64,000 bases of DNA, taken from Alphaproteobacteria bacterium (GTDB lineage Bacteria; Pseudomonadota; Alphaproteobacteria; CALKHQ01). The notes under the pieces are model-generated. The model saw nothing but the letters and a program-made list of their open reading frames with translations. It was not told the origin of the DNA and made no database searches. Position 1 is the stretch's first letter. Every line of letters begins with the position of its first letter. This document shows positions 1,695 to 58,304 of this stretch, piece by piece. A program made the translations under genes and the position numbers. The stretch lies in NCBI GenBank assembly GCA_965227515.1, contig CBDDFZ010000001.1:1696001-1760000 (forward strand), given 5' to 3'.

Positions 1695-2561
1695 CTACGA
1701 CCCGAAGTATTTCAGGAACGGGCCGATCACCTGGCGGAAGCCGGCCTCGAAGTCGTCATTGCCGGGGTGGTAGACCTGTTCCAGCGAGACCACGCCGTCA
1801 TAGCCATCGGCCACCAATGCCTGGGCCATCGGCGTGAACTGGTCGGCGAGCTGGCCTTCGCCCATCGGGCGCACCTCCAGCGTTGCCTTCGGCGTGTCGG
1901 CGTAGACATCCTTCACGTGCAAGTGGCCGACATAGCCGCCCTTCACGGACTCCCAGCCGTCCGGCCAGGCCTTCTCGTGCGCCCAGCAGTTGTTCGCCGG
2001 GTCCCACAGCACCCGCAGCACGTCGCGGGCGTCCAGGTCGTCGATCAGCTTGCGCGCGGTCCAGCACGAATTGACCATGGTGCCGTTGCCGGTCTCCACC
2101 ACGAGCTGGATGTCCTCGCGGCGGGCGAGCTCGATGGCCGGCGCGACCAGTTCCAGCATGCTGTCCCACGCGCCCTTGGCGACGTTCCAGTGCTCCGCGC
2201 CATGGCGGCCCCACAGGATCATCTCCTTCTTGCCGGACATGATGCGGACCAGCGGCGCGTCGAGCTTGCGCGACACGTCGATGCAGCGCTTCAGCGTGTC
2301 CATGTGGCGGGTGTGAAGTTCGTCGCCGACCTTGGTCGACATCGGCATGCCGGCGAACACGTGGTGGCAGATGTTGGAGACCTTCTTGCCGTGACGGTCC
2401 AGCAGGTCGCGGGCGCGCGCCACCTCCTGCGCGTCGAGGTTGCCGATCTCCTTGTCCCAGACGAACTGCAGCTCGGCATAGTCCAGGCCGAACTCGTCCA
2501 TGACCGAGAGCGCATGCTCCAGGTCGCGGCTGATGCCGTCGGTGATGACGCCCAGTTTCAT
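1695..2561 (-). CDS. Sugar phosphate isomerase/epimerase, xylose isomerase-like TIM barrel
   Basis: Metal-ligand motifs LVVET, WDPAN, HLHVKD, VSLE. Confidence 0.85.
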   Translation of the reverse strand: MKLGVITDGISRDLEHALSVMDEFGLDYAELQFVWDKEIGNLDAQEVARARDLLDRHGKKVSNICHHVFAGMPMSTKVGDELHTRHMDTLKRCIDVSRKLDAPLVRIMSGKKEMILWGRHGAEHWNVAKGAWDSMLELVAPAIELARREDIQLVVETGNGTMVNSCWTARKLIDDLDARDVLRVLWDPANNCWAHEKAWPDGWESVKGGYVGHLHVKDVYADTPKATLEVRPMGEGQLADQFTPMAQALVADGYDGVVSLEQVYHPGNDDFEAGFRQVIGPFLKYFGS

Positions 2562-2576
2562 GTTCTTGCTGTCCTG

Positions 2577-3476
2577 CTAACGGTGGAGCTCGGCGCCGAC
2601 GATATCCTCGACGACGCGGGTCACCACCCAGTTGTCGCCATCGGGGTGCCTGGTCTTGCCGGCGTGGAAGAGCTGCATGGCGGTGGACGCGGTGAACAGC
2701 GGCACGCCCAGGTCGCGGGCCATGTCGAGCACGATGGTCAGGTCCTTGTGCATGGTGGCGATGTGGCTGCCGGTGCCCTCGAACCTGCGGTCGATGATGT
2801 TTTCCAGCGCCGTGTTGGCGACGCCGCAACCGGCGCCGGACGTGCTGATGACGTCGTAGAGCACCTGGCCGGATACGCCGGCCTTCGCGGCCAGCACCGA
2901 CGCCTCGAACGTCGCGGAGAAGACGGAGCCGATCAGCGACTGCAGGCAGGCCTTCACGGTCTGGCCCATGCCGGGCTCGGTGCCGACCCGATGAATGGTC
3001 TTCGACACCGCTTCCATCGCCGGGCGGGCGCGGTCGAGCGCGGCATCCTCGCCGGCCGCCATCATGGTCAGAGTGCCGCCCTGGGCACCCGGAAAGCCGC
3101 CACTGACGGGTGAGTCGATCAGGTCGATGCCGGTGCCGGCCAGCCCCTCGCCAATCGCGCGCGCCTCGGCCGGCCTGATGGTGGCGGTGAGGATGACCGC
3201 GGCACCGGGCTGGAGCGTCGATGTCAGGCCGTCCCGGCCCTCGGCGCCCAGGATCACCGCCTTGGCCTGGTCGCCGTTCATCACCATCACATAGACCGCA
3301 TCGGCGCCGTCGCCGACCGCCGCGGCACTGCCGGCGGCATGTCCGCCCATGGCCGTGAACGCCGCCATCCGATCTGTGCTGAGGTCGAAGCCAGCGGTCT
3401 CGAACCCCGCGGCAATCAGGTTCTTGGCCAGGCCCGAGCCCATGTCGCCCAGCCCGATGACGCCTACGCGTGCCAT
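2577..3476 (-). CDS. NAD(P)-dependent beta-hydroxyacid dehydrogenase (3-hydroxyisobutyrate/L-threonate dehydrogenase family)
   Basis: GVIGLGDMGSG Rossmann motif, DSPVSGG, catalytic Lys in GQTVKA, MHKDL. Confidence 0.9.
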   Translation of the reverse strand: MARVGVIGLGDMGSGLAKNLIAAGFETAGFDLSTDRMAAFTAMGGHAAGSAAAVGDGADAVYVMVMNGDQAKAVILGAEGRDGLTSTLQPGAAVILTATIRPAEARAIGEGLAGTGIDLIDSPVSGGFPGAQGGTLTMMAAGEDAALDRARPAMEAVSKTIHRVGTEPGMGQTVKACLQSLIGSVFSATFEASVLAAKAGVSGQVLYDVISTSGAGCGVANTALENIIDRRFEGTGSHIATMHKDLTIVLDMARDLGVPLFTASTAMQLFHAGKTRHPDGDNWVVTRVVEDIVGAELHR

Positions 3477-3587
3477 ACGTCCTCCCCTCCGGTTGCTGCG
3501 GCTTGTCGCGCCGCATTCGCCGGCATCATGGCTCGGATCGGGCGACGGGGCGAGGGGAGAGATACGATGCCGTCAGCGGCGGCGCGC

Positions 3588-4139
3588 CTATTGGTCCTCG
3601 TACGACAGGATGCGATCGCGCAGTGCGGTGAACCGTGCCTCGACCTCGGTGCCGAACAGCGGGTCCTGGCGCGCGAGCAGCGGGTGGTCGGACATCGTGC
3701 CGTCACCCGCCGAAAGCGCCTTCTCGGCCTGCGGGAAGAAGCCGTCCTCTTCCATCTGCATGTGATGGCGCTGCGCGGACACGAACTCGCGCGCAGCTCT
3801 GAGAAACTCGTCCCTGGGGACGGCGGCCTCGATGACCACCCGGTCGAGCAAGTCGGCGAAAGCGTGGGTCAGCCGGCCCAGATCCTCGTGCAAGGCGGCG
3901 AGCTTCTTGGCCGACGGACCGGTGCTGCCGATCGTCTGCTCCAGCTCTCTGGCAACCAGATCCTCCTTCGGGTGATGGCAGCTGTCGGGATAGTCGCCGA
4001 AGTACTCCATGATCGACTGCAGCACTTCATAGTCGGGGAGCTCGCCCTGCTCGAACAGGTCGAGCTGGCTGTCCAGCAAACTCAACAGGCGTTCCATGTC
4101 GCGGTGTTCCGCGCGCAGACTCGCAATGATGTCGGACAT
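3588..4139 (-). CDS. Hemerythrin domain protein
   Basis: EHRDM, HHPKED, LHEDL, HMQMEE helical metal-ligand pattern. Confidence 0.85.
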   Translation of the reverse strand: MSDIIASLRAEHRDMERLLSLLDSQLDLFEQGELPDYEVLQSIMEYFGDYPDSCHHPKEDLVARELEQTIGSTGPSAKKLAALHEDLGRLTHAFADLLDRVVIEAAVPRDEFLRAAREFVSAQRHHMQMEEDGFFPQAEKALSAGDGTMSDHPLLARQDPLFGTEVEARFTALRDRILSYEDQ

Positions 4140-4323
4140 GACTGGCCTCCGATGATCTTCGTGGCGCCATACGATCCTTTCTTAAAGGATGGTACGACCG
4201 GTGGCGGTCCCGCAAGCCCACGGGCGCAGATGTCGCAATCTGGCGTCGGCGCTTGCGCGGTAGGACGATCCGGCCGTCCGGCCCTATAATCGGCGGGGGC
4301 GTCCGCGATATCGGAGACGGCAT

Positions 4324-6081
4324 ATGGAAATGGAAGTGGCACTGGGGTTGGACCGCGACGCGCTGCGCGCCGACCTGTCGGTCGCCTATCCGCCGGACGT
4401 TGTCGACCGCCTGGTCACGCGCATCGAAGACGTGGTCGCGCACTACCGCGAACAAATAACGCAGCCGCGCCCCTCCTGGGTCGACGAGGGCGATGCGATG
4501 CTCATCACCTATGGCGATTCCATCGGCGACGGCGCGCGCGCGCCATTGGCCGTGCTCGCGGCGTTCCTGGCCGCCCACGTGGGCGACGCGATCTCCAGCG
4601 TCCACATCCTGCCGTTCTATCCCTACACCTCCGACGACGGGTTCTCGGTGGTCGACTACCGCGCGGTCGACACCGGCCTCGGCGACTGGGACGACGTCGC
4701 GCGCCTGGCGGATCGCTATGCGCTGATGTTCGATGCCGTCATCAACCACGTCTCGCGCCACAGCGTGTGGTTCCAGAAGTTCCTGGCCGACGACCCGGCC
4801 TATGCCGACTACTTCATCGCCTGCGCGCCCGATGCCGACACCAGCCAGGTGACGCGGCCGCGCGCGCTGCCGCTGCTGACGCCGGTGGACTGCGCGTCCG
4901 GGACGAAGCATGTCTGGACGACGTTCAGCGACGACCAGATCGACCTCAACTACGCAAACCCCGACGTGCTGGTCGAGATCGTCGATCTGCTGTTGTTCTA
5001 CGCCGCGCAGGGCGCGCGTTACATCAGGCTCGATGCCATTGGCTTCATGTGGAAGGAGCTCGGCACCACGTGCATGCACCTGCCGCAGGCCCACGCGCTG
5101 ATCCGCGCCATGCGTCAGGCGGTGGACGCCGCATCACCCGGCACGCTCGTGATCACCGAGACCAACGTGCCGCACGCCGACAATGTCAGCTACTTCGGCA
5201 ATGGCGGTGACGAAGCCCACATGGTCTACCAGTTTCCGCTGCCGCCGCTGACCCTGCACGCGTTCCAAACGGGCGACGCCAGCCGGCTGTCGGACTGGGC
5301 AGCTTCGTTGCCGCCGACGACGCCCCAGACCACGTTCTTCAATTTCCTGGCGTCCCATGACGGCATCGGCGTGCGCCCTGTCGAGGGCATCCTGTCGCCC
5401 GCGGAAGTAAAGGCCATGGCGGCGGGCGTGGAGGCGCGCGGCGGGCTGATTTCGGTCCGCAACATGCCCGACGGCACGACCGCGCCCTATGAACTCAATA
5501 TCGCCTATGTCGATGCCATTGCCGAGCCGGATGACGACGATGAGACCCGTGCCGCGCGGTTCCTGGCCGCTCAGACCGTCCTGCTGTCGATGGCCGGGGT
5601 GCCGGGCATCTACATCCACAGCCTGCTCGGCTCGCGCAACGACCTGGCCGGTGTCGCGCGTACCGGCCGCAACCGGTCGATCAATCGGGCGAAGCTTGGT
5701 CTGGGCGACCTGGAGGCCGAGCTTGCACGGCCCGACAGCCTGCGGGCGCGGATTTTGGCGGGGACGCTCAAGCTGCTCGGTCTGCGCCGACAACGGCCGG
5801 CGTTCCACCCCAATGCCGGCCAGCGCATCGTGCCGGTCGACCCGCGGGTGTTCAGCCTGGTGCGCGAGAACCCGCAGGACCGGGTCTGGGTGGCGGTCAA
5901 CGTGTCGGCAGACACCGTCTCGCTGCGGGTGCGATGCGCGACCATCGGGTTCGCGGCGGGCGCGGCGCTGGCAGATGTGATCGGCGGGGCTGAGGTTGGC
6001 GGGGCTGAGGTGGGCGGGGACGCCGAGCACATCGCCCTCACGCTGGCGCCGTTCCAGTCCGCATGGGTGGCGGCCGGCTGA
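4324..6081 (+). CDS. GH13_18 sugar phosphorylase, probably glucosylglycerate phosphorylase
   Basis: LITYGD, HILPFYPYTSDDGFSV, RLDAIGFMWK (nucleophile), ITETNVPH, FLASHDGIG, PYELN loop. Confidence 0.85.
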   Translation: MEMEVALGLDRDALRADLSVAYPPDVVDRLVTRIEDVVAHYREQITQPRPSWVDEGDAMLITYGDSIGDGARAPLAVLAAFLAAHVGDAISSVHILPFYPYTSDDGFSVVDYRAVDTGLGDWDDVARLADRYALMFDAVINHVSRHSVWFQKFLADDPAYADYFIACAPDADTSQVTRPRALPLLTPVDCASGTKHVWTTFSDDQIDLNYANPDVLVEIVDLLLFYAAQGARYIRLDAIGFMWKELGTTCMHLPQAHALIRAMRQAVDAASPGTLVITETNVPHADNVSYFGNGGDEAHMVYQFPLPPLTLHAFQTGDASRLSDWAASLPPTTPQTTFFNFLASHDGIGVRPVEGILSPAEVKAMAAGVEARGGLISVRNMPDGTTAPYELNIAYVDAIAEPDDDDETRAARFLAAQTVLLSMAGVPGIYIHSLLGSRNDLAGVARTGRNRSINRAKLGLGDLEAELARPDSLRARILAGTLKLLGLRRQRPAFHPNAGQRIVPVDPRVFSLVRENPQDRVWVAVNVSADTVSLRVRCATIGFAAGAALADVIGGAEVGGAEVGGDAEHIALTLAPFQSAWVAAG

Positions 6082-18782: not shown

Positions 18783-18869
18783 GCGGTCGTGGCGGAATTG
18801 GTAGACGCGCAGCGTTGAGGTCGCTGTGGGGTAAAACCCGTGGAAGTTCGAGTCTTCTCGACCGCACCA
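18783..18869 (+). tRNA. tRNA-Leu(GAG)
   Basis: GCGGTCG acceptor stem, D-arm GGAATTGGTAGAC, anticodon arm CAGCG-TTGAGGT-CGCTG, long variable arm, GTTCGAG T-loop, CCA end. Confidence 0.97.
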
Positions 18870-46576: not shown

Positions 46577-46725
46577 CCGCTGGCGCACACCACACTGAAG
46601 TGACGGTCGAGGAAGGCCTAGGCGATCTGCCGGCCCGACCGCACCAGCGGGTGCGACAGGTCGATGATCTCATCGAGCGGCGGGCGGAACAGATCGACCT
46701 GGCGGTCGTCGCGCGGCCTGCTCAT
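46546..46725 (-). pseudogene. IS5-family transposase N-terminal remnant with internal stop
   Basis: Minus strand reads MSRPRDDRQVDLFRPPLDEIIDLSHPLVRSGRQIA*AFLDRHFSVVCASGYSRPPLPSRL, matching the IS5 N-terminal pattern DLFR..L..IID..HPLV.L...IDW......GRPPLPTRL (Trp replaced by TAG). Confidence 0.8.
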
Positions 46726-46946: not shown

Positions 46947-47993
46947 TCATAATTGCTCGACGATATCCGCGGCTGAGTCATACATTTGGACAACGTCGCG
47001 CAACAAATCCGACCTACTGGCCCATCGGGATGCTCTTCGGCATGTCCTGACAGCGGCTTCACGGGTAATGCCAATCTTGTCGCCGGCCAAACAATGTTCA
47101 TGACTCCACCAGGGCCCGTCTCCCTTGTGCGATAGGATCAGGCCCAGTCGAATGCCCATATGCATCGTGCCGAATATGGCTAAGTATTCTAGTGACTCCG
47201 ACGCTTTGTTGGCGCCGACCAATTGTTCCACCCAGGTGTTAAGCGCGGCGTTTTCGAAGTCGCCCAGATCCGTCACATACTCGTCTGCGATCAACCAGGC
47301 GGCATCGTCAATTCGGCTACGGCGGCCACAATGCTCCCAATCAATCCAATAGACCGTATCGTCATCGGCCACGATGGCGTTGCCTGGTCTGGCATCCCAC
47401 TTCACGAGGCCATGTCGTTTCGGCCTCAAGCGCTTGGCGATGCTTTCGATGTTGATTTGCGGTTCGGGCAATCCGAAATGGCGAGCCAGGCGCAACGGGG
47501 TCTCCGCAAATTCCTGGCGCCATGGCCTGTCCAAGCCAATTGTGGCCACGTCGGCAGTCCAACGGCACTGGTCTGCGGCTTGATAGATCGCGCGCAGGCT
47601 CTCAAGTCCGCGGTCAAGCCATGCCAAGGTTTGGATAGGTGACAGGCCGTCCAGGACCTCGGTCAATCGCCTGGTGCCCACATCCTGCTGAATGATGATA
47701 TCTCGGTCGCGTGCGAGAATTGCAGGCACGGGCGCGCCAAGGACACTGAGTTCACTCAGGACTCGGCGCTCAAGCAAGCCGCGATTGCCAGATGAGCGTC
47801 TGGTGCCAATTACGGTCGTCCCGTCAGCCAACCTCAGTCGGATTGAGTCGCGCGATTTGCCGCCCGGGAAGCTAACGTCAACGGCCTTCTGGCCCAGAAG
47901 GCCTTCACACCGCTCTATGAAGAGTTTTCGTTCCTCGCGCCGCAAAGCTGGTACGCCGTATCCTGATGGTTCCGTCAGATTGGCGGCCACCAT
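46947..47993 (-). CDS. APH/choline kinase-like phosphotransferase
   Basis: FPGGKSR Gly-loop, GAPVP, QQDVG, WDARPGN catalytic loop, WIDWEH; lower GC than the host genes. Confidence 0.8.
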   Translation of the reverse strand: MVAANLTEPSGYGVPALRREERKLFIERCEGLLGQKAVDVSFPGGKSRDSIRLRLADGTTVIGTRRSSGNRGLLERRVLSELSVLGAPVPAILARDRDIIIQQDVGTRRLTEVLDGLSPIQTLAWLDRGLESLRAIYQAADQCRWTADVATIGLDRPWRQEFAETPLRLARHFGLPEPQINIESIAKRLRPKRHGLVKWDARPGNAIVADDDTVYWIDWEHCGRRSRIDDAAWLIADEYVTDLGDFENAALNTWVEQLVGANKASESLEYLAIFGTMHMGIRLGLILSHKGDGPWWSHEHCLAGDKIGITREAAVRTCRRASRWASRSDLLRDVVQMYDSAADIVEQL

Positions 47994-48021
47994 ACAGGCT
48001 GCCGGACTGTAGACAAAAAGG

Positions 48022-48053
48022 AATGGCCGCCGGGTACACGCCCGGCGGCCATT
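48022..48053 (-). terminator. Intrinsic terminator after the GS-repeat RTX gene
   Basis: AATGGCCGCCGGG-TACACG-CCCGGCGGCCATT 13-bp stem, followed on the minus strand by CCTTTTTG. Confidence 0.75.
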
Positions 48054-48076
48054 TTAGGATTCGCCGTGATTTGGCG

Positions 48077-49987
48077 TCACGCAAGCGGCCCAACTAGTGC
48101 CACCTCGTCAGTGTAGTCTTGAATGACGAACAGCAGTGCACCATCGGCCTGATGGACGTTTGTGTTGCTGCCATCGACCACTGTGTAGTCGCCACGGACC
48201 ACATCTCCATCGTCGAAGTTGTAGTCCATGATGATGTCCGTTCCGCCATTCTCGAAATTGTCGACCTGGTTGCCGATGCCCTTGTGATCGAAGTGATCGG
48301 CACCCTCGCCACCATAGAGAATGTCGTCGTCGCGGCCACCATTCAGGGTGTCGTCCCCGTCGCCACCATTCAGCGTGTCAACGCCTGTTCCGCCATTGAC
48401 CTCGTCATTGCCGGAACCGCCATTCACGATGTCATCGCCGTCATCGCCCTGCAGGAAGTCGTCGTCGGCTCCGCCATCCAGCAGGTCGTCGCCGAGCCCA
48501 CCGAGCAAGAAGTCGCCGCCATCGTCCCCAAACAGCTGATCCATTCCGTCGTCACCGGACAAGAAGTCCTCGCCGTTTCCGCCGAACAGGGTGTCGTTGC
48601 CGCCGTTGCCAAACAGCGCATCCATGCCGTCCAGCCCGCTGATAACGTCGTCACCTCCCATACCCCGGATGATGTCGGCGCCACTGGTGCCTGTCAGTTC
48701 TTCGGAATCGTCGGTGCCGTTGATTTCGTTGAAATCGTCGGAATCCGGCCCGTGCTTTCCGCCGGAGCCCGAGCCCGAGCCGCTGCCGGAACCCGACCCC
48801 GAACCGCTGCCGGAACCGTGCTTTCCGCCGGAGCCCGAACCCGAACCACTGCCGGAACCCGAACCACTGCCGGAGCCATGCTTGCCGCCGGAGCCCGAAC
48901 CCGAACCGCTGCCGGAACCCGACCCCGAACCGCTGCCGGAACCGTGCTTTCCGCCGGAGCCCGAACCCGAACCACTGCCGGAACCCGAACCACTGCCGGA
49001 GCCATGCTTGCCGCCGGAGCCCGAACCCGAACCGCTGCCGGAACCCGACCCCGAACCGCTGCCGGAACCGTGCTTTCCGCCGGAGCCCGAACCCGAACCA
49101 CTGCCGGAACCCGAACCACTGCCGGAGCCATGCTTGCCGCCGGAGCCCGAACCCGAACCACTGCCGGAACCCGAACCACTGCCGGAGCCATGCTTGCCGC
49201 CGGAGCCCGAACCCGAACCACTGCCCGAGCCGTGCTTGCCGCCGGAACCAGAGCCGGAGCCCGAACCTGATCCACTGCCGGAGCCGTGCTTGCCGCCGGA
49301 ACCAGAGCCGGAACTCTTGGCGTACCAACCGCTGGGCGCAACGCCATCGAGCAGGTAGTCGGAACTATGCTTTCCGCCGGAGCCCGAGCCGGAACCGCTG
49401 CCGGAACCCGAACCCGATCCGCTACCGGAGCCGTGCTTGCCGCCGGAACCCGAGCCGGAGCCCGAACCCGATCCACTGCCCGAGCCGTGCTTGCCGCCGG
49501 ACCCCGAGCCGGAGCCCGAACCCGATCCGCTACCGGAGCCGTGCTTGCCGCCGGACCCCGAGCCGGAGCCCGAACCCGATCCGCTACCGGAGCCGTGCTT
49601 GCCGCCGGAACCCGAGCCGGAGCCCGAACCCGATCCACTGCCCGAGCCGTGCTTGCCGCCGGACCCCGATCCGGAGCCCGAACCCGATCCACTACCGGAG
49701 CCGTGCTTGCCGCCGGAACCGCTACCGGAACCCGAACCCGATCCGCTACCGGAGCCGTGCTTGCCGCCGGAACCTGATCCGGAGCCCGAACCCGATCCAC
49801 TGCCGGAACCGTGCTTGCCGCCGGAACCCGAGCCTGAGCCCGAACCTGATCCACTGCCCGAGCCATGCTTGCCGCCGGAACCCGAGCCGGAGCCCGAACC
49901 CGATCCACTGCCCGAGCCGTGGTAGGCGCCAGAGCCATTGCCCCCACTCAGATAACCTTTGAAATAGAGCTCATCGTACAAGGACAT
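48077..49987 (-). CDS. RTX-repeat secreted protein with Gly-Ser/GGKH tandem repeat domain
   Basis: AGGGGG RBS before MSLYDEL; 20 GGKH-(GS)n units, then GGxGxDxLx repeats and a C-terminal tail. Confidence 0.88.
48750..49925 (-). repeat. Intragenic tandem repeat encoding GGKH(GS)5-9
   Basis: One block has a 54-bp period (49433-49870), the other alternates 60 and 66 bp (48750-49200); they are separated by a unique [17 protein letters not shown] spacer. Confidence 0.95.
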
Positions 49988-50557
49988 TGTGTTCCCCCTA
50001 GTTCGTCGGTTGCGTAGGCCTTCGCCCTCTCCCGTTTCAGTCTCGGAAGCCGGAAAGCACGACAATCGCCAAAGGTTAATCCAAGGGACGAGTTTTTGTA
50101 ATGAATTTTACATATTTTTACATTGCAATCGTTTTCAGGTTTTTCAGTGTTTCTTAGAAACCTTCTAGATCTTACGGAGACACGTTATGGTGGTTGAGTC
50201 TCTCAAGCATCCCGACAGCTTAATCTTGCTCGGTTCGAAAGACTTGGCAGCGATGCGTCCGTGCGAACGATTTAGAGTTTGAGGGCGTCTACCTTTGCAC
50301 ACATCCAGGTGAAGAGCTCGGAAATGGACCAGGTGAGCATCATACGGATCGACCAGCGGGTGGTGTCGGACCGTGGTGACGGATCAACTGCGCAACGACG
50401 TATGCGACGATCTGCTTTGAGCTGGGCCGAGGTGTATCTTTTCGAGCCGTTGTCCGCCGGGTGCGGTTGCTGTAGCGATACCTGTTCGCTTAGACTCATA
50501 CGCACACGGGCTCCGACCTCCGATCATTGGATCAGTCTGTGAAGGGATGGGGTGCGA

Positions 50558-52588
50558 ATGGCAAGTGTAATCGATGGTGTGGCAACGCTTGCCGCTGCTT
50601 ATCCTGGCTTGATCCCAACGCCTGTGGGAAACAGTTCCAGCAGCGCGGCAACGATGCCGAAACGGCGGGATGTGTTGGACGATGCGGGGCAGACACCTGA
50701 TAGCCTGTCCGACCTGCTAGCGCGCCTCGCTGAAGCACAGGCTGGAGCCTGCCGCATGTCTGACGTCTTGGGCCTGTTCCCAAGAGTATCGGCGGCAAAG
50801 CTATGGGACGACCTTCTGCGGTTCCTGCGAACGGAAGACTCAGATTCTGGCGATGACACGGGCGCAGCCGCGTTTTTCACCAAGACCGATACCGCGCGAT
50901 ATTTCAGGCTCTTTTCGACGCGCGCGCCGATGGTCTTGCCTCTGCTGCGAGCGGCGGATGGCCTGCCACCCACCATATGCGTCCCAAACCTGATGCCGGG
51001 CGACCAGACACCACAAGGTGTGCTTTCCGGGACTTGGGAACGTAGCTTAGCCGGCCCCGCTGGCATGCTGTTGCATGCGATGTTGGGCGGATGTGCGGAA
51101 GTTGCTGAATGCCTCGGGCATGGAATCGACCCCGATGCCGAACGTGCGTCGCACACCCAACGACAGCCTACAGATGCCTACGCCAACGCTTTGCAAGCAT
51201 GTGGGTATGCAGGACAGGCCGACCTCGAGCACGGACTGCCGGGAGCCGTTTGCGCTGGTGTGATTGTCGAGATACTCGAACTAGGAAGGAGTTCGTCTGA
51301 GTCCAGCTCGGAGCGAAAGGCTGCTCGAGGCAGAATGCGGCCTCTACTGAGCGATCTGCTCGACATGTGTGATCACCTCGCAATGGCGGACGGGGATGCG
51401 GCACTGGCATGCGCGGCCGACTATGCAGCCAACGGTCGAGGTGCAAGAGCTCGCAATCTCATAAGCCGCTGTGTTGTCCTCTATCCAAACGACCCTGACG
51501 TGCTGGCTCAACTGGCAGCACAGCAGCAGGAGACAGGCAGGGAGGACGAGGCGATTGAAACCTATGAGAAAATTCTTTCACTTGTCCCTGGCCATACCGT
51601 TGCACATGTCGGTCGCGGTGACCTCTATCTCAATCAACAACGGTTTGAACACGCGGCCGATGATTACGAAAAAGCTCAAGTGAATGCGGCGCCCGGGGAA
51701 GAGATTGAACAGCGCGGTAAGCTGTTAATTGAGTTGTCCAGCGCATACCGAGAGGCAAAGCAAAATGATGCAATGCCTACAGTGACTGTCAGCGACGACG
51801 AGTTTGCCACAGGGAAGTGGCATCCCGCTCGGTTGTCACTGGCACTGAATATGTTTCGACAGTATGGTGCGCTGAAGATCGCCAACGCATTCGATGTTGA
51901 CTTGCTCACCGCATGCAATCGCTACTTTGTCAAACGCTATTCATCGTATTTCGACCGTGGATCGAAGTCGGACGCCCTCAATATTGGAGACAAGAGATAT
52001 CAGATCGGAATCTCACTTGATGGAGCGTTCAACAACCCGGGCGTATATGCCAACAAGTTCGTATTGTCCCTGATGCAGGCCCTGTTGGGCGAGGATTTCG
52101 TCCTCGGGTGCACCGTTTGCGCCACCTCGATGCCCGGTGCAAAGGATCAGCACCTGCACAAGGATCATAAGTCATTGTTTTCCATGGATGCCGCGGGGGA
52201 GGCGGTAACACTGCCTCCATTCGCGGTGACAACAATGGTTCCGCTCGTGTCGCTCGACCATCGGATTGGCACCACTAGCGTCCGGAAGGGCAGTCATGTG
52301 CTTGGCAGCCGTGCGTCAAGAGATCTACCTTCACAAGAACCTTTGGTCCCGCTTGGGTCGTGCTTCCTGATGGATTTCCGGTTGTCGCATCAGGGTCTGG
52401 CCAACCAGACCAATACAGTGCGACCGATTATCAATATGGTGTACCAACGGCCATGGTTCTTCGATTCCAAGAACTTCACCAAGCACCCACCGCTCCACGT
52501 ACCCGAGGGCGAATTCAAGAAGGTGCCGTCGGAACACCGCCGGCTGCTGGAGTGGGGGACTCGGCCCGCCCCGCAGATTGCGATCTAG
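50558..52588 (+). CDS. TPR-containing PhyH-family 2-oxoglutarate/Fe(II) dioxygenase
   Basis: Central TPR repeats; C-terminal PGAKDQHLHKD (HxD), KGSH, SHQGLAN (His), RP. Confidence 0.85.
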   Translation: MASVIDGVATLAAAYPGLIPTPVGNSSSSAATMPKRRDVLDDAGQTPDSLSDLLARLAEAQAGACRMSDVLGLFPRVSAAKLWDDLLRFLRTEDSDSGDDTGAAAFFTKTDTARYFRLFSTRAPMVLPLLRAADGLPPTICVPNLMPGDQTPQGVLSGTWERSLAGPAGMLLHAMLGGCAEVAECLGHGIDPDAERASHTQRQPTDAYANALQACGYAGQADLEHGLPGAVCAGVIVEILELGRSSSESSSERKAARGRMRPLLSDLLDMCDHLAMADGDAALACAADYAANGRGARARNLISRCVVLYPNDPDVLAQLAAQQQETGREDEAIETYEKILSLVPGHTVAHVGRGDLYLNQQRFEHAADDYEKAQVNAAPGEEIEQRGKLLIELSSAYREAKQNDAMPTVTVSDDEFATGKWHPARLSLALNMFRQYGALKIANAFDVDLLTACNRYFVKRYSSYFDRGSKSDALNIGDKRYQIGISLDGAFNNPGVYANKFVLSLMQALLGEDFVLGCTVCATSMPGAKDQHLHKDHKSLFSMDAAGEAVTLPPFAVTTMVPLVSLDHRIGTTSVRKGSHVLGSRASRDLPSQEPLVPLGSCFLMDFRLSHQGLANQTNTVRPIINMVYQRPWFFDSKNFTKHPPLHVPEGEFKKVPSEHRRLLEWGTRPAPQIAI

Positions 52589-52606
52589 CGGGCTGCCGAG
52601 GCCGCC

Positions 52607-54166
52607 GTGCACGCCGAGATTATCGACGACTTCAGGAAACTTGAGAACCTGCGCGCGAACTGGGACGAACTCTATCGCAAGGATCCCGATGCGCAGCTAT
52701 TCCTGTCCTGGCCCTGGCTCTCGCATACATTTCGACGTCATCCAAAGCGCACATTTCTGATACTTGCCGTGCGCCCCGACACGCCTCGGGATCACTATCT
52801 TGCGTTCATGCCGTTGAGGCTAAGTTTGCGAAATGATGACAAGCTTGGAGGCTATTGCAACGAGCTCTACATGGCCGGCAACTACTGGGCGGACTATACG
52901 GGCTTCGTCGGCGACCCGGACCGTGACGCAGAAACCATACCGGCACTTGCAGCGGCGCTGAAATCTTTGTGTTGGAAGTCACTGCATCTTGACTTCCTGC
53001 ACATGTCGGAGGCCCGGACGGAAGGTTTGCTCGCTCAGTTCTCCGATGACACATTTCGGGTCGTTCGCCGGACCCGTGTCTCGCCGGTCGATGGCACCAA
53101 TTCCCTGATTTGTCCGTATATTGAGCTACCCAGTGAGTTCGATACTTACCTAGCCACCAATATGAGCGCTAACACACGGCAGAAATTCAGACGCTTTAGC
53201 CGACGTATCGATCAGTCGGACGTACTGGCTATCTCTGAGTCCAGCGCCCAGACCCGCTCGCGGGATCTTGACATACTGCGTCAGTTTTGGGTCGAAAAGT
53301 GGAGAACGCGAAAAGGCGACAGCACTGAGCGGCTTGGACGAAGATACGTCGATATTCTCGCGGCAGCAATGCGCGACGACATGGCCTATATTTGTCTGCT
53401 CTGGCGTGGTGATCAGCCATTGGGCGCGCTTGGCCACTTGATCGACTGGGAGAAGAAGTGCTTGATGTACTATGTCGCTGGTCGTGACGAAAAGGTCCAG
53501 GGCATTCCGATAGGCCTTCTTTTACATGGACACAGTATTCGGTGGGCGATTGAGCAAAAAATTGAAACCTATGATTTTCTTTGTGGTAATGAGTCCTTCA
53601 AGTATTCGTATGGTGTGCGAGAGCGTCAGATCAGGTGCTATGAAATCCGGACCAGGTCCGGATTCAACCTGCACGGCAGGCTCGACCCTCGCACAATGGA
53701 AAAAGCGCTGGAGCGTGCCACCCGGGCCCAAGACCGTGGGCGACTAAGCCGGGCTGAAGCCGGCTATCGGCAGGTGCTCGCAATCCGGCCCACCTCAGCG
53801 CGCGGTCTGCGCCGGCTCTCTCGCTTGCTCGTATCGCAGGGACGCTCGGCGGAAGCCGACGAATTTCTCGAAAGACTCGTTGAGTTGCGAGACAAGAGCG
53901 CGCTGGCGTGGGACATGCTTGGGCGGGTGAAGTTCGACTTGGGCGACTACAGGGAGGCTCGTTCATCGCTTATGCGGGCCGTCTCCCTCGGATCCGATGT
54001 ATCTGATGAGGCAGTCTCTTGTCTTGGTCGCGCCTGCCTGAGAATAGGCGATCCCAACGAAGCTGGTCGATGGTGCGATGTCTTGGCCGACCGTGCTCGA
54101 ACAAAAAACAGCATGTCTGCGCAGGCTCTTGCAGAAAACCTTCGTAATGAAATTGAACGTTCTTAA
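52607..54166 (+). CDS. CelD/BcsL-type GNAT acyltransferase with C-terminal TPR
   Basis: LFLSWPWL, ADYTG, CPYIELP, GLLLHGHSIRWAI, YDFLCGNESFKYSYG, then TPR motifs. Confidence 0.85.
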   Translation: MHAEIIDDFRKLENLRANWDELYRKDPDAQLFLSWPWLSHTFRRHPKRTFLILAVRPDTPRDHYLAFMPLRLSLRNDDKLGGYCNELYMAGNYWADYTGFVGDPDRDAETIPALAAALKSLCWKSLHLDFLHMSEARTEGLLAQFSDDTFRVVRRTRVSPVDGTNSLICPYIELPSEFDTYLATNMSANTRQKFRRFSRRIDQSDVLAISESSAQTRSRDLDILRQFWVEKWRTRKGDSTERLGRRYVDILAAAMRDDMAYICLLWRGDQPLGALGHLIDWEKKCLMYYVAGRDEKVQGIPIGLLLHGHSIRWAIEQKIETYDFLCGNESFKYSYGVRERQIRCYEIRTRSGFNLHGRLDPRTMEKALERATRAQDRGRLSRAEAGYRQVLAIRPTSARGLRRLSRLLVSQGRSAEADEFLERLVELRDKSALAWDMLGRVKFDLGDYREARSSLMRAVSLGSDVSDEAVSCLGRACLRIGDPNEAGRWCDVLADRARTKNSMSAQALAENLRNEIERS

Positions 54167-54483
54167 CAAAATGCAGGTTAATCAGGGAGGCTATTAGTCT
54201 TTTAATTGGTTATTGCTGGCCGATATTAGCGCTCGTGACTTTCTCGCTGGATCAGTCGACTGTGAGGTGCGCTCGGCGTTGGGATCTCAGGCAATCTGCA
54301 GGGCGTTGAACGCATATGCCAGCGATCTGGCGATGGCGCGATCGCCCGCCTGGTCGCCCACGAGATGGCCGGCACCGCCGGCCGCTGACGCCTGATTGGA
54401 ACAGAAAGTGTAACCGTTAGACTTTTCCACGCCCTGTGGAGTCTAACGGCCAGTCGGCTGCGGCGGCTATATCAATGATGCGA

Positions 54484-54532
<49 letters not shown>

Positions 54533-54591: not shown

Positions 54592-55692
54592 TCATCCGAC
54601 CAGCGCGAGTTCCGCCGCATCGAGGCGTTCCTGGTCGCGGCCTTCGTCAGGCCACAGGTGGGCATACAGATCCATGGTCATGACGATGGACTCGTGACCG
54701 AGCCGGCTCTGGACTTCCTTCTCGCGGTAGCCCTGGTGGATGAGCCACGAGGCATAGAAGTGCCGCAGGGCGTGCAGGCCATACTTCGGCTTGCCGTCTT
54801 TCGTCAGGCCGGCTTCGATCTGCATCGGATCGAAACCGCGCTGGCGGATGTTGGCGTAGGATTCGACGTTACCCTTGCCGTTCGGAAACACGAGGTCCAG
54901 ACGGCTGGCTGGGCACCGTAGCTTCCATTCCTTGAGAGTGTTGCTGACGAGCTTGCCGATGGGAATGTCGCGAAAGCCGGCTTCGGACTTCGGCGCACCA
55001 ATGGTGCCCCATTCGTCTGCCCGCTGCCGTACATGGATGACGCGATCTTCCGCGTCTTGCCAGCGCAGGGCGCGCAACTCGGACGCGCGGAGGCCCGTCA
55101 TGGCGGCGACTACGACGAATGGACGCCAGCGGTCGGACGCAGCGGCGATGAGCTGTTGAACCTCAGCCATCGTCGGAGGGACCACCCGTTTGCGGTGCCG
55201 CTTTGGCACGTCGATAGTGGTCTTGCTGGCGACGTTCTGTCCGACCAGGCCACGACGTTGCGCGTCGTACAAGACTGACTTGAGGCTGGTCAGCACCTTG
55301 CGTGCCATTGGCCGCGAGTGCTTTTCCAAGAGCCGGTCACGAAACGCCTCTGCATCCGGCGCGGTGAACTGAGTCAATCGAGTGCTTCCAAGCTCCGGCG
55401 CGATGTGCAGACGGACGTGGCGACGATACGCCACCAGCGTGTTGCGCTCGCGCCCTTCGGCTTCCAGGCGAGCCAGCCATAGGTCGGCGGCTTCCTGAAT
55501 GGTCTTCGACGCACCATCGGCTACGTGGGTACCGCGACGCACATCGACGTGGGTCTGGCTCGCCCACGCGTCCGCGTCCTTCTTCGTGGAGAACGTCTTG
55601 AGGCGGCGCTTGCCCTGTCCGTCTTTGTAGTCGACAACCCAGGCCGTCCGATCCTTGCCACCGCTGGACCATTTCCGCTTTCGAACTGCCAC
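54592..55692 (-). CDS. int: Tyrosine recombinase/integrase
   Basis: N-terminal arm-binding region; TGLRASEL (R), PKS (K), HALRH, LGH, LYAH (Y). GTG start after GGAGG. Confidence 0.95.
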   Translation of the reverse strand: MAVRKRKWSSGGKDRTAWVVDYKDGQGKRRLKTFSTKKDADAWASQTHVDVRRGTHVADGASKTIQEAADLWLARLEAEGRERNTLVAYRRHVRLHIAPELGSTRLTQFTAPDAEAFRDRLLEKHSRPMARKVLTSLKSVLYDAQRRGLVGQNVASKTTIDVPKRHRKRVVPPTMAEVQQLIAAASDRWRPFVVVAAMTGLRASELRALRWQDAEDRVIHVRQRADEWGTIGAPKSEAGFRDIPIGKLVSNTLKEWKLRCPASRLDLVFPNGKGNVESYANIRQRGFDPMQIEAGLTKDGKPKYGLHALRHFYASWLIHQGYREKEVQSRLGHESIVMTMDLYAHLWPDEGRDQERLDAAELALVG

Positions 55693-55803
55693 GACCGCCT
55701 CCATTGGTTACGTCGCATTCCCATATTGTTGCAAATACTCCCTGTGTCAATGGTCGTCGCCAGATGAGCGCCGAAAAAAATGTCTGCGTGCCGCAGTTAA
55801 TGC

Positions 55804-56574: not shown

Positions 56575-57256
56575 AACGAAACCGCCGCCTCCGGTTGGCG
56601 GAACCGGGGCGGCGGTGAAATGGAATTGGCTTGGCGGCTCAAATTCCGACACCGAACATACCGCCACCGCCGCAGATGTTCAACTGCCAGTCGACTTGCA
56701 CCACGAGTTGGCCATCGCGCAGCGCCTTGCAGGGCGATATGGCCTGGACAACAAACTTCAGGCCTACGGCATTACCCCTGCCGACCAGATCGAAACCGAT
56801 GTGATAGCAGTCGACCGCATCCTAGTCGGCGCCGGGCGGTACTCCCCACTTCCCCATCATTTGCCTACAGACAGGTTGAGCCGGCCATCCGAGTTGTGGT
56901 GCCTCACCCCGATCCGTTCTCCAGCGGGCGAGGTCTTCAACGTGGTGGCATGGCGGCCGAACAGTCGCCAGACTTACGTGCGGATGCGCTGGCCGGCGCT
57001 ACTGGGCTGCGGCATCGGAGACGATCCCATCGACCGCGCCCTGATCTGTGACGAGCCGCTGGTCGTCTACGGCACAGTCGCGGCGTGGCACAGGCAGGCG
57101 CATGGCCCTGGTGTCGTGTGGTTGAACGACGACGTGTCGGAACTGTGGGGTGTCGACCGCGCCCTGACTGATGACATGGAGACGTTGCGCAAGCTGCGGG
57201 TCGCAGACGTTGACGCGCGGTTCATTGCTGCGGAGGTGGATGCCCATGCAGCATGA
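56561..57256 (+). CDS. Hypothetical replication-module protein (possibly divergent primase/TOPRIM-like)
   Basis: Directly upstream of the helicase; TPIRSPAGEVFNVVAWRP...EPLVVY...PGVVWL. Confidence 0.55.
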   Translation: MMRPETKPPPPVGGTGAAVKWNWLGGSNSDTEHTATAADVQLPVDLHHELAIAQRLAGRYGLDNKLQAYGITPADQIETDVIAVDRILVGAGRYSPLPHHLPTDRLSRPSELWCLTPIRSPAGEVFNVVAWRPNSRQTYVRMRWPALLGCGIGDDPIDRALICDEPLVVYGTVAAWHRQAHGPGVVWLNDDVSELWGVDRALTDDMETLRKLRVADVDARFIAAEVDAHAA

Positions 57257-58304
57257 CAATTCGGCGCGGTGGGAAGCGGCGAGCCCCTATGCCGGCCTGA
57301 CGCTCAGCCTTGATGCGTGGGCCGCACGCGATGTGCCTCCACGGCGCCTGTTGCTGGGCGATATCTTCTCAGCGACGACCCGGGCCATGCTGGTCGCGGA
57401 CACCGGCATCGGAAAGACGCACTTGGGGTTCGCGTTCGCCTTCGCAATGGCCGCTGGCGAGCCCTTCTGCCATTGGGAGGGGCATGAGCCCGCGAAGGTG
57501 CTGATTGTCGACGGGGAGATGAGCATCGGGCTCATGAAAGAACGCCTCGCCGATGCCGAGCGCCGGCTTGGTATCAGGCCGCCCGATCTGCATTGCGTCT
57601 GCCGCGAGGAAGCGGAGCAGATGCCTGCGCTGGACACGCCGGAAGGCCAGGCATGGATGGACGGCTTAGTCCAACACCTTGGTGGCATCGACTTCCTGAT
57701 CCTCGACAACATCATGAGCCTGACGTCTGGGGATATGCTCGACCCGGAAGGCTGGAAGCCGGTCACGACTTGGATGCGCGCGCTTACTGCCCGCCAGATC
57801 GGTTGTCTGTGGATCCACCACACCGGCCACGACGGCAGCCGCAGCTTCGGGACCAAAACTCGCGAATGGCAACTCGACTTGGTGATGGTCGGTGAGAAGG
57901 TGGACGATCTCGCAGCCGATATTGCGCTCAAGGTTACGTTCAAGAAGGCCAGACAGCGCACGCCAGCGACGCGGGAAGACTACGAGACGACCACGCTACG
58001 GCTGACTAAGGACATTTGGACCAGCGACAACGCCGGGCAACGACAGACAGGTAGGGTGTCACCAGCCGGGCTCAAATTCAAAGATGCCTTGGCCAACGCC
58101 CTGTCGCTTCCTGCTGCCGAGCACTTCAACGGACAGCGCGCCGTCACCTTCGATGTCTGGAGGAACGAGTGCGAGCGAATGGGCCTGATCGATGGCCAGG
58201 ACAAGCCCCACAGCGCGCGAGCCCTGCTCTCAAAGTATCGGCGGGAGTTGGTCGCAGCCAACGTTGTGGTCTGCGAGAACGACCTGGTTTGGATGGTTTC
58301 ATGA
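57246..58304 (+). CDS. RepA/AAA_25-type (SF4-like) helicase
   Basis: Walker A ADTGIGKT, VDGEM, Walker B FLILDN, IHHTG, FGT, FKKAR; GGAGG RBS. Confidence 0.85.
   Translation: MQHDNSARWEAASPYAGLTLSLDAWAARDVPPRRLLLGDIFSATTRAMLVADTGIGKTHLGFAFAFAMAAGEPFCHWEGHEPAKVLIVDGEMSIGLMKERLADAERRLGIRPPDLHCVCREEAEQMPALDTPEGQAWMDGLVQHLGGIDFLILDNIMSLTSGDMLDPEGWKPVTTWMRALTARQIGCLWIHHTGHDGSRSFGTKTREWQLDLVMVGEKVDDLAADIALKVTFKKARQRTPATREDYETTTLRLTKDIWTSDNAGQRQTGRVSPAGLKFKDALANALSLPAAEHFNGQRAVTFDVWRNECERMGLIDGQDKPHSARALLSKYRRELVAANVVVCENDLVWMVS

Follow-up and report, generated by a model that had tools for sequence, protein, structure and literature searches.

The four-gene block and its products

The window analyzed here is a stretch of 64,000 nucleotides from an alphaproteobacterial genome (contig CBDDFZ010000001.1 of assembly GCA_965227515.1), and all positions are counted from its first letter. 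It contains a block of four intact open reading frames (ORFs) at 46947-54166, lying between the stop of a conserved 608 amino acid ORF (46576) and a fragment of tRNA-Phe (54484-54532). The genes encode a kinase, a Gly-Ser-rich repeat protein of the kind exported by type I secretion systems (T1SS), a dioxygenase and a GNAT-fold transferase, and we describe here their products, the neighborhoods of their relatives and the case for reading them as a protein-modification cassette. A previous interpretation of the same DNA, made without database searches (hereafter the sequence-only reading), had reported four lower-GC genes at this locus. All four were found where it had placed them, and their GC content, with the repeat excluded, is 0.51-0.61 compared with 0.65-0.73 in the left flank. 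The features of the block and its edges are as follows.

46621-46725, minus strand: relic of the N-terminus of an IS5-family transposase (35 aa), on the left border of the lower-GC stretch
46947-47993, minus strand: APH-fold (eukaryotic-like) kinase, 348 aa, assigned from an AlphaFold2 (AF2) model and Foldseek; homologues carry PF01636
48022-48053, minus strand: terminator-like hairpin between the repeat-protein gene and the kinase gene, with a 13-bp stem (10 GC pairs), a loop of 6, then CCTTTTTG
48077-49987, minus strand: gene for a T1SS-type secreted repeat protein, 636 aa; start ATG at 49987, longest ORF from a TTG at 50065
48080-48751, minus strand: C-terminal 224 aa of the repeat protein, RTX nonapeptide repeats and presumed T1SS secretion signal
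48752-49939, minus strand: repeat region, residues 17-412, 20 units of (GS)5-9-GGKH
49940-49987, minus strand: N-terminal 16-aa motif, consensus [DN]LxFxxYLxGG, predicted docking site of the kinase
50552-52588, plus strand: 678-aa protein with a degenerate APH-like N-domain, TPR and a PhyH-type 2-oxoglutarate (2OG)/Fe(II) dioxygenase (Pfam TPR and PF05721)
52607-54166, plus strand: 519-aa Fem-like tandem GNAT (PF13480, residues 1-350) with TPR (about residues 360-519), from Pfam, AF2 and Foldseek
54477-54532, minus strand: 56-nt direct repeat with the 3' half of tRNA-Phe(GAA) (54484-54532), the right limit of the block and outside the proposed system

The IS5 relic had also been noted from the sequence. 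A tblastn search against plasmids found 65-72% identity (E 1e-6) to the N-termini of annotated IS5-family transposases, and Pfam gave no match for these 35 residues. DNA synteny with a relative from the same family (88% identity) stops at about 46571.

The repeat protein probably starts at the ATG at 49987, which has a ribosome binding site (GGGGGA) 5 nt upstream and with which the homologues agree. Its first 415 residues consist of 46.5% Gly, 36.9% Ser, 5.3% Lys and 5.1% His, and Pfam finds RTX repeats (PF00353, E 4e-21, four stretches) at about residues 450-610 of the long ORF. The description of an RTX protein whose N-terminal 400 or so residues are nearly all G, S, K and H is thus borne out, as is that of a terminator between its gene and the kinase gene, where the hairpin has a T tail. 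The run of GGKH units is interrupted once by a 19-aa echo of the N-terminal motif, and tandem periods of 54 and 126 nt are present in the repeat. In one contig from another DNA run (X4), 637 nt of the Gly-Ser repeat (window 48730-49368) are skipped, with 22 other letters between the joined ends, and contigs of run X2 have rearranged joints in it; these may be variation in repeat length or artefacts of short-read assembly, and are too weak to serve as evidence on repeat length.

The AF2 model of the kinase (predicted local distance difference test, pLDDT, 91.5) has a bilobal fold with a helical substrate subdomain, and its top Foldseek matches are all APH-fold kinases (E 1e-8 to 1e-5). The best is corramycin kinase (8agy/8ahd, E 1e-8, template modeling score, TM, 0.63-0.67, 18-19% identity), with YtaA/CotI (2q83, rank 3), homoserine kinase II and amicoumacin kinase among the other close folds. 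The catalytic loop KWDARPGN (D200, N205) is followed by IDWEH (D218), and D200, N205 and D218 are invariant in 30 aligned family members; the His of the HxDxxxxN catalytic loop is Trp in this family. R66 and E75 form an invariant pair where the beta3 Lys and alphaC Glu are expected, the position being read from the strands of the model without superposition. The earlier call of an APH-like kinase agrees with these results. PF01636 (APH) was present in 88 of 120 kinase homologues among the matches listed, a sequence search of the window kinase against the PDB gave a best E value of 0.56, NCBIfam has no specific family for it, and its ESM Atlas matches were only to "hypothetical/APH domain" clusters. 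The corramycin kinase ComG is described as an APH-fold kinase of an antibiotic peptide (PMC10996006).

The dioxygenase matches PhyH at 29.6 bits against a cut-off of 22, and the HxD (H536, D538) and H613 ligands and the 2OG-binding R624 are invariant in six aligned sequences. It had been recognized as a TPR-fused 2OG-Fe(II) dioxygenase; our analysis adds an APH-like domain. An APH domain that 742-aa paralogues retain intact (CHGDLRPPN...DWD) can be aligned with the N-terminal 280 aa of the window protein, where it is degenerate (CVPNLMPGD...TWE). This domain and the window kinase were considered as close paralogues and the idea was rejected, the hhalign probability being 3% with the catalytic motif alone aligning. 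Among 5.8 billion proteins, 41 relatives of the PhyH subfamily were found, and all those listed are TPR-PhyH proteins. By sequence, the closest PhyH relative with a solved structure is kanamycin B dioxygenase (E 2e-12), an enzyme that oxidatively deaminates an amine-bearing carbon.

The GNAT gene begins 18 nt past the dioxygenase gene, and matches Acetyltransf_6 at 66.6 bits. The sequence-only reading had described a CelD-type GNAT fused to TPR; the PF13480 GNAT, the TPR and the orientation divergent from the RTX gene all stand, while the protein is reclassified as a Fem-like tandem GNAT. Its AF2 model (pLDDT 90.9) is closest in Foldseek to FemX of W. viridescens (E 7e-12, TMt 0.68-0.70), with a sequence identity of 11-16%, and a sequence search of the GNAT domain against the PDB found nothing. 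Ranks 1-11 are all aminoacyl-tRNA-dependent transferases (FemX, FemA and the peptide synthases Sbb17 and Sba18), and tandem GNATs that use acetyl-CoA (VipF, PamZ) appear from rank 13. FemX aminoacylates the epsilon-amine of a peptide Lys. Since the best structural matches use aminoacyl-tRNA, transfer of an aminoacyl group to Lys appears at least as likely as acylation for the window enzyme.

Kinase-family neighborhoods and a shared substrate motif

In order to survey the kinase family, a profile built from 30 aligned homologues was scanned on contigs from one genome per species, covering 185,579 species. The scan gave 212 pattern matches, of which 176 were confirmed, and the best 80 of the 176 loci were used for all 80-locus counts; these loci come from Alpha-, Beta- and Gammaproteobacteria and are not phylogenetically independent. 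Within 1 kb of the kinase, an ORF with at least three GGxGxD (RTX) motifs occurs in 27 of the 80 loci and an HlyD-type membrane fusion protein (MFP) in 26. Within 5 kb, an ABC gene is present in 26 loci, an ORF with at least 80% G+S over 50 aa in 17, and any T1SS gene or RTX or Gly-Ser-rich substrate in 56; homologues of the PhyH and GNAT proteins lie within this distance in 5/80 and 8/80 loci, respectively. Co-occurrence of the enzymes with low-complexity RTX genes had been proposed as a check on the sequence-only reading, and for the kinase these counts bear it out: T1SS genes and Gly-Ser-rich or RTX substrates show a strong association with this family.

Pfam confirms ABC_membrane plus ABC_tran, HlyD and TolC-like outer membrane efflux proteins in the kinase clusters, which take two layouts. 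In the first, mostly gammaproteobacterial, a Gly-Ser-rich protein, an ABC transporter, an MFP and the kinase are found with or without a GNAT, a PhyH protein or a 400-aa P-loop protein. The second, mostly alpha- and betaproteobacterial, has an RTX protein adjoining the kinase, and this is the layout of the window. In the 17 loci with a Gly-Ser-rich ORF, that ORF is usually about 3.4 kb from the kinase and just upstream of the ABC-MFP genes. Among the cluster substrates are many small proteins (90-140 aa) that are rich in Gly/Ser, have an acidic C-terminus and are encoded directly upstream of ABC and HlyD. The larger ones carry Big_9, cadherin-like, SdrD_B, PA14 or thioester domains and therefore look like adhesins. 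The proteins of about 400 aa form a family beside the kinase in 8/80 loci (for example L013:4625-5830, L020:5698-6918, L058:11067-12254 and L077:2203-3405), whose sole Pfam signal is a weak P-loop (AAA_29) in one member, and which is absent from the window. In one of these loci, from a Methylomonas metagenome-assembled genome (MAG), the cluster abuts a gene for a PhoR-type sensor kinase identified by Pfam (L013:5839-14493), which is not so in the sister locus L020; for the genes after it, size and N-terminal sequence alone suggest phoB, phoU and pst.

Homologues of the PhyH and GNAT proteins flank the kinase and T1SS genes in nine loci, L010, L014, L037, L041, L058, L060, L070, L071 and L072. 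An APH-TPR-PhyH fusion was found by Pfam in L070 and by alignment in L071 and L014, and a GNAT-APH fusion in L037 (5279-7975, the ORF being cut by the contig end). In L070 a GNAT is fused to a full aldehyde dehydrogenase (2199-4745), which hints at an aldehyde intermediate. Given this fusion and the kinship with kanamycin B dioxygenase, oxidation of Lys to allysine by the PhyH enzyme is a possible chemistry beside hydroxylation.

Several classes of gene were not seen in the parts of the clusters that were scanned. No lyase or cyclase partner of the lanthipeptide class III, IV or V type was seen in the conserved neighbor families or in the representative neighbors scanned with Pfam, and the conserved neighbor families contain neither sugar or lipid biosynthesis genes nor an immunity-like small membrane protein. 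A C39 peptidase domain was missing from all 11 ABC transporters of the clusters, whose membrane domains begin at residues 22-43. A location of the homologous enzymes mostly in polysaccharide or lipopolysaccharide loci, named beforehand as an outcome that would speak against a modification system, was not what we found for the kinase; for PhyH the same can be said as far as seen, in 41 relatives, all of them TPR-PhyH.

The aligned N-termini of six substrates from different lineages share invariant Y12, L13, G15 and G16. When we scanned for the pattern [FYL]xx[YF]LxGG at most 60 aa from a Gly-Ser-rich stretch, 1.07 M aa from the 80 loci yielded 16 occurrences of the combination, spread over 15 loci, and the six-frame translation of the host genome (11.0 M aa) yielded one, which is the repeat protein of the window. 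The motif is also found internally in large (500-2200 aa) RTX/cadherin/Big_9 proteins, for example ...GSGADLSFNDYLDGGAGND... The GGKH unit itself recurs in small Gly-Ser proteins of Methylomonas (L013), a gammaproteobacterium (L044) and Methylomarinum (L025), and GKH in a 594-aa alphaproteobacterial protein adjoining a kinase (L035).

Complex prediction for the kinase and the first 60 aa of the substrate gave scores of 0.70, 0.69 and 0.71, with 0.01 for the best control; for comparison, 58 of 80 solved complexes attain the mark used for this score, as do 2 of 110 mismatched pairs. Contact agreement between runs was at least 26%, with a pLDDT of 40-42 for the partner. The predicted contacts join substrate residues 4-9 and 11-16 to kinase residues 152-172, W199/D200, H221 and 280-291, and several of these kinase residues are invariant in the family. 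In the prediction the confident contacts coincide with the conserved motif, which is placed within the cleft of the kinase and faces the catalytic Asp. The kinase is thus predicted to dock on the N-terminal motif of its substrate.

Probable acquisition of the block and the neighboring element

A search of 60 relatives for the kinase at E<=1e-10 found no copy, and near-identical pieces of all four genes (90-100% identity) are present in short, low-depth contigs of four other DNA runs, X2-X5. Together these observations give the picture of a horizontally acquired cassette.

The sequence-only reading had also placed a tRNA attachment site at the border of the block. The site is real and belongs to the neighboring integrase element rather than to the four genes. 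The 56-nt repeat at 54477-54532 is unique in the window and holds the 3' half of tRNA-Phe, not a whole tRNA. An exact second copy lies in the host genome at positions 1762877-1762932 of the same contig (window-equivalent 66877-66932), where it overlaps an intact tRNA-Phe just past the end of the window. These direct repeats flank an integrative element of about 12.3 kb in tRNA-Phe that runs from 54533 through 64000 and on to window-equivalent 66876. Two of its genes are the following.

54592-55704: tyrosine integrase of the neighboring element
57171-58304: AAA_25 protein of the neighboring element

Carriage of the four genes as cargo of this element was considered and rejected, since the repeats enclose the integrase side only and the four genes therefore lie outside it. 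The sole complete tRNA in the window is a tRNA-Leu(GAG) at 18783-18869.

A proposed modification system and its alternatives

We propose that the block unites a substrate and its modifying enzymes in one cassette, which would belong to a widespread and apparently undescribed family of T1SS-associated protein-modification systems, a reading that we consider probable, if by no means assured. It is supported by gene linkage, the shared motif and the predicted docking. That the enzymes and the repeat protein form a modification system had already been suggested in the sequence-only reading, and the linkage in 56 of 80 loci, the motif, the docking score of 0.70 and the gene fusions all strengthen that suggestion. 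As candidate chemistries the sequence-only reading had put forward Ser phosphorylation, Lys/His hydroxylation and Lys acylation. The chemical steps described below, their order and the export of the product are what we infer for the cassette.

The substrate would be an unfolded, export-competent polypeptide composed of the [DN]LxFxxYLxGG motif, the (GS)n-GGKH repeat and the C-terminus with RTX repeats and secretion signal. The APH-fold kinase, as the core enzyme of the family, would dock on the motif and phosphorylate the substrate in the cytoplasm before export. The likeliest phosphate acceptors would be the serines of the Gly-Ser repeat, with the invariant Tyr or the residue after YL as alternatives. 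The accessory enzymes, both with peptide-binding TPR modules, may share this polypeptide as their target, the Lys of each GGKH being the most plausible site: the PhyH dioxygenase would carry out hydroxylation or oxidative deamination of its side chain, and the Fem-like GNAT would place an acyl or aminoacyl group on the epsilon-amine. Since no ABC/HlyD pair is encoded in the block, export of the product would fall to one of four T1SS resident in the genome. Four ABC/HlyD pairs do lie elsewhere on the host contig, and RTX/cadherin proteins encoded at 2.720-2.722 Mb of that contig, about 10 kb from one of these resident pairs, have C-termini that match residues 583-662 of the long ORF at 53-55% identity. 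A further and considerably more tentative proposal, one that we would rate as doubtful in its full form, is that the motif-recruited kinase, the Fem-like transferase and the PhyH enzyme turn (GS)n-GGK(H) repeats into a densely phosphorylated exported polymer with branched or oxidized Lys, a prokaryotic counterpart of silaffins and phosphophoryn serving metal or mineral binding, adhesion or matrix cross-linking.

Several observations weigh against the proposed cassette. The kinase matches no Pfam family even at E<=10, the PF01636 hidden Markov model included, and Arg66 appears to occupy the place of the ATP-binding beta3 Lys, which is unusual for APH-fold kinases. The complex score was obtained with a small custom alignment for the partner, whose fold is uncertain. 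In the model the residue beside the catalytic Asp is Leu13, which has no hydroxyl, and the next residue is Ser or Thr in some homologues only, so that the model points to no single acceptor residue. The block lacks the ABC and HlyD exporter pair that its relatives carry in 26 of the 80 loci. No T1SS-related gene occurs within 5 kb of the kinase in 24 of the 80 loci, many of which have short flanks, while at least five such loci (L019, L046, L048, L066, L078) have full 10-kb flanks. Two of these, L048 and L078 (kinase at around 10000, 34-37% identity), are from Halieaceae MAGs and have a housekeeping context, with no T1SS gene within 10 kb; the genes before the kinase are presumably carA, carB and greA, judging from their N-terminal sequences. 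The kinase family is therefore not always clustered with its presumed substrates. Because the 80 loci were picked through the kinase, the 5 and 8 loci with PhyH and GNAT homologues do not constitute an independent survey of those two enzymes. An Acetyltransf_6 paralogue that is 33% identical (L090:7707-10102, host contig 3477706-3480101) has a CsgG-like gene as its neighbor and a LuxR-type response regulator close by, with no kinase or Gly-Ser-repeat gene in the vicinity.

The small Gly/Ser-rich substrates with acidic C-termini, directly upstream of ABC and HlyD, could instead be microcin-like or otherwise bioactive peptides, for which the kinase would provide self-protection or maturation, as ComG does for corramycin. 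It would then hold the product in an inactive state up to its export instead of building a polyphosphorylated polymer with a structural or metal-binding role. The N-terminal motif closes with GG, in the manner of double-glycine leaders. The solved structure nearest to the kinase is that of an enzyme described as inactivating an antibiotic peptide (PMC10996006). However, the clusters contain no immunity-like small membrane protein among their conserved neighbor families, the motif lies inside adhesin-like RTX/cadherin/Big_9 proteins of 500-2200 aa, and the window protein itself has 636 aa and an RTX domain, so that we regard this explanation as unlikely. The lack of a C39 domain, the peptidase that trims double-glycine leaders, in all 11 ABC transporters speaks against it as well, and also makes cleavage at GG unlikely; the release of RiPP-like peptides (ribosomally synthesized and post-translationally modified peptides) by such cleavage, an alternative offered in the sequence-only reading, is rejected on this ground and on the internal position of the motif in large proteins.

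It might also be that the kinase and the RTX protein alone are linked, and that the TPR-PhyH and GNAT-TPR proteins act on a polysaccharide, a lipid or a small molecule and merely share the island. This would fit the small number of kinase loci with PhyH (5/80) or GNAT (8/80) homologues, the position of the GNAT paralogue of the same genome next to a CsgG-like gene, and the aminoglycoside substrate of the nearest solved PhyH relative; PF13480 proteins are often annotated as CelD/BcsL-type proteins of cellulose loci. Against it stand the GNAT-APH (L037) and APH-TPR-PhyH (L070, L071, L014) fusions, the PhyH or GNAT genes that directly flank kinase and T1SS genes in L070, L071, L037, L060, L041, L010 and L014, the retention of TPR in all 41 PhyH-subfamily relatives listed, and the lack of sugar and lipid biosynthesis genes among the conserved neighbor families, and on balance we hold such a division of the block to be improbable. 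Least of all would we expect a chance juxtaposition in a decaying island, in which a fast-evolving low-complexity RTX gene has no dedicated enzymes and the cassette is perhaps inactive. A lower-GC block without a transporter between an IS5 relic and an attachment site, a kinase not found in 60 relatives at E<=1e-10 and a degenerate APH-like domain in the dioxygenase would suit that explanation, but it is made very improbable by the integrity of all four ORFs, the recurrence of the linkage, the motif and the GGKH unit across bacterial classes, and the near-identical copies of the four genes in runs X2-X5.

The substrate-plus-enzymes cassette that we favor can be compared with several known systems, of which HlyC activation, CotH, FemX and leader-guided RiPP enzymes are the closest, and none of which fits as a family. 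HlyC and CyaC are dedicated cytoplasmic acyltransferases, encoded beside the RTX gene, that modify Lys before T1SS export. The cassette resembles them in having dedicated enzymes encoded beside an RTX/T1SS substrate. It differs in that the enzymes are an APH-fold kinase, a PhyH protein and a Fem-like GNAT, that the target is a low-complexity repeat rather than two lysines of a pore-forming toxin, and that the substrates have a short docking motif in common; no HlyC-type acyltransferase was among the Pfam matches of the four proteins. CotH is described as an atypical kinase that polyphosphorylates the Ser/Lys-rich SKR repeats of CotB and CotG in the Bacillus spore coat (PMC7821199). In the cassette too a kinase would act on a Ser/Lys-rich low-complexity repeat of a secreted protein, and the APH-fold coat protein YtaA/CotI was third in our fold search, but CotH functions in Gram-positive spore assembly without a secretion system, has another fold family and lacks a dioxygenase or Fem-like partner.

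The GNAT shares the tandem fold of the FemX/FemABX proteins, with FemX, FemA, Sbb17 and Sba18 as best matches, and differs from them in its low identity (11-16%), its PF13480 rather than FemAB family and its fusion to TPR; its donor would be aminoacyl-tRNA or acyl-CoA. ComG and other APH-fold kinases (AmiN, PsiK, homoserine kinase II) have the fold of the window kinase, with a peptide substrate in the top match. ComG, however, confers resistance to a small antibiotic; the window kinase, at 18-19% identity, belongs to a family tied to T1SS genes and to Gly-Ser-repeat proteins both large and small. RiPP and class IIb microcin systems likewise have an N-terminal motif ending in GG before a Gly/Ser-rich region and enzymes beside an ABC/HlyD exporter, and an APH-like protein with a bound leader peptide (TvaE-TvaLP, 8jsu) is rank 36 of the kinase fold search; they differ in the C39 domain missing from all 11 transporters here, in the additional internal occurrence of the motif in large adhesin-like proteins, and in the lyases and cyclases not seen here. 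Silaffins and phosphophoryn are eukaryotic biomineral proteins, Ser/Lys-rich, of low complexity and secreted, that are densely phosphorylated and have modified or hydroxylated lysines. The enzyme set of the window could make similar marks, a likeness of analogy alone, with no homology.

To our knowledge, the sole textbook case of a dedicated modification of T1SS substrates is the HlyC-type lysine acylation of RTX toxins, and full-text literature searches gave no description of a T1SS/RTX system with such a kinase, dioxygenase or Gly-Ser-repeat modification. If the proposed reading is correct, the kinase family would constitute a second, chemically different layer of control over Gram-negative export, with a recognizable docking motif, and the optional dioxygenase and Fem-like partners would join this kinase-based export modification. 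It would provide a function for proteins now labeled "phosphotransferase", "hypothetical protein", "phytanoyl-CoA dioxygenase family protein" and TPR protein, and a role for the APH-like kinases (176 confirmed stretches in 185,579 species scanned) and the TPR-PhyH subfamily. The puzzling low-complexity GS(K/H) proteins found in methanotrophs, in marine Gammaproteobacteria and in Alphaproteobacteria would gain a role as well.

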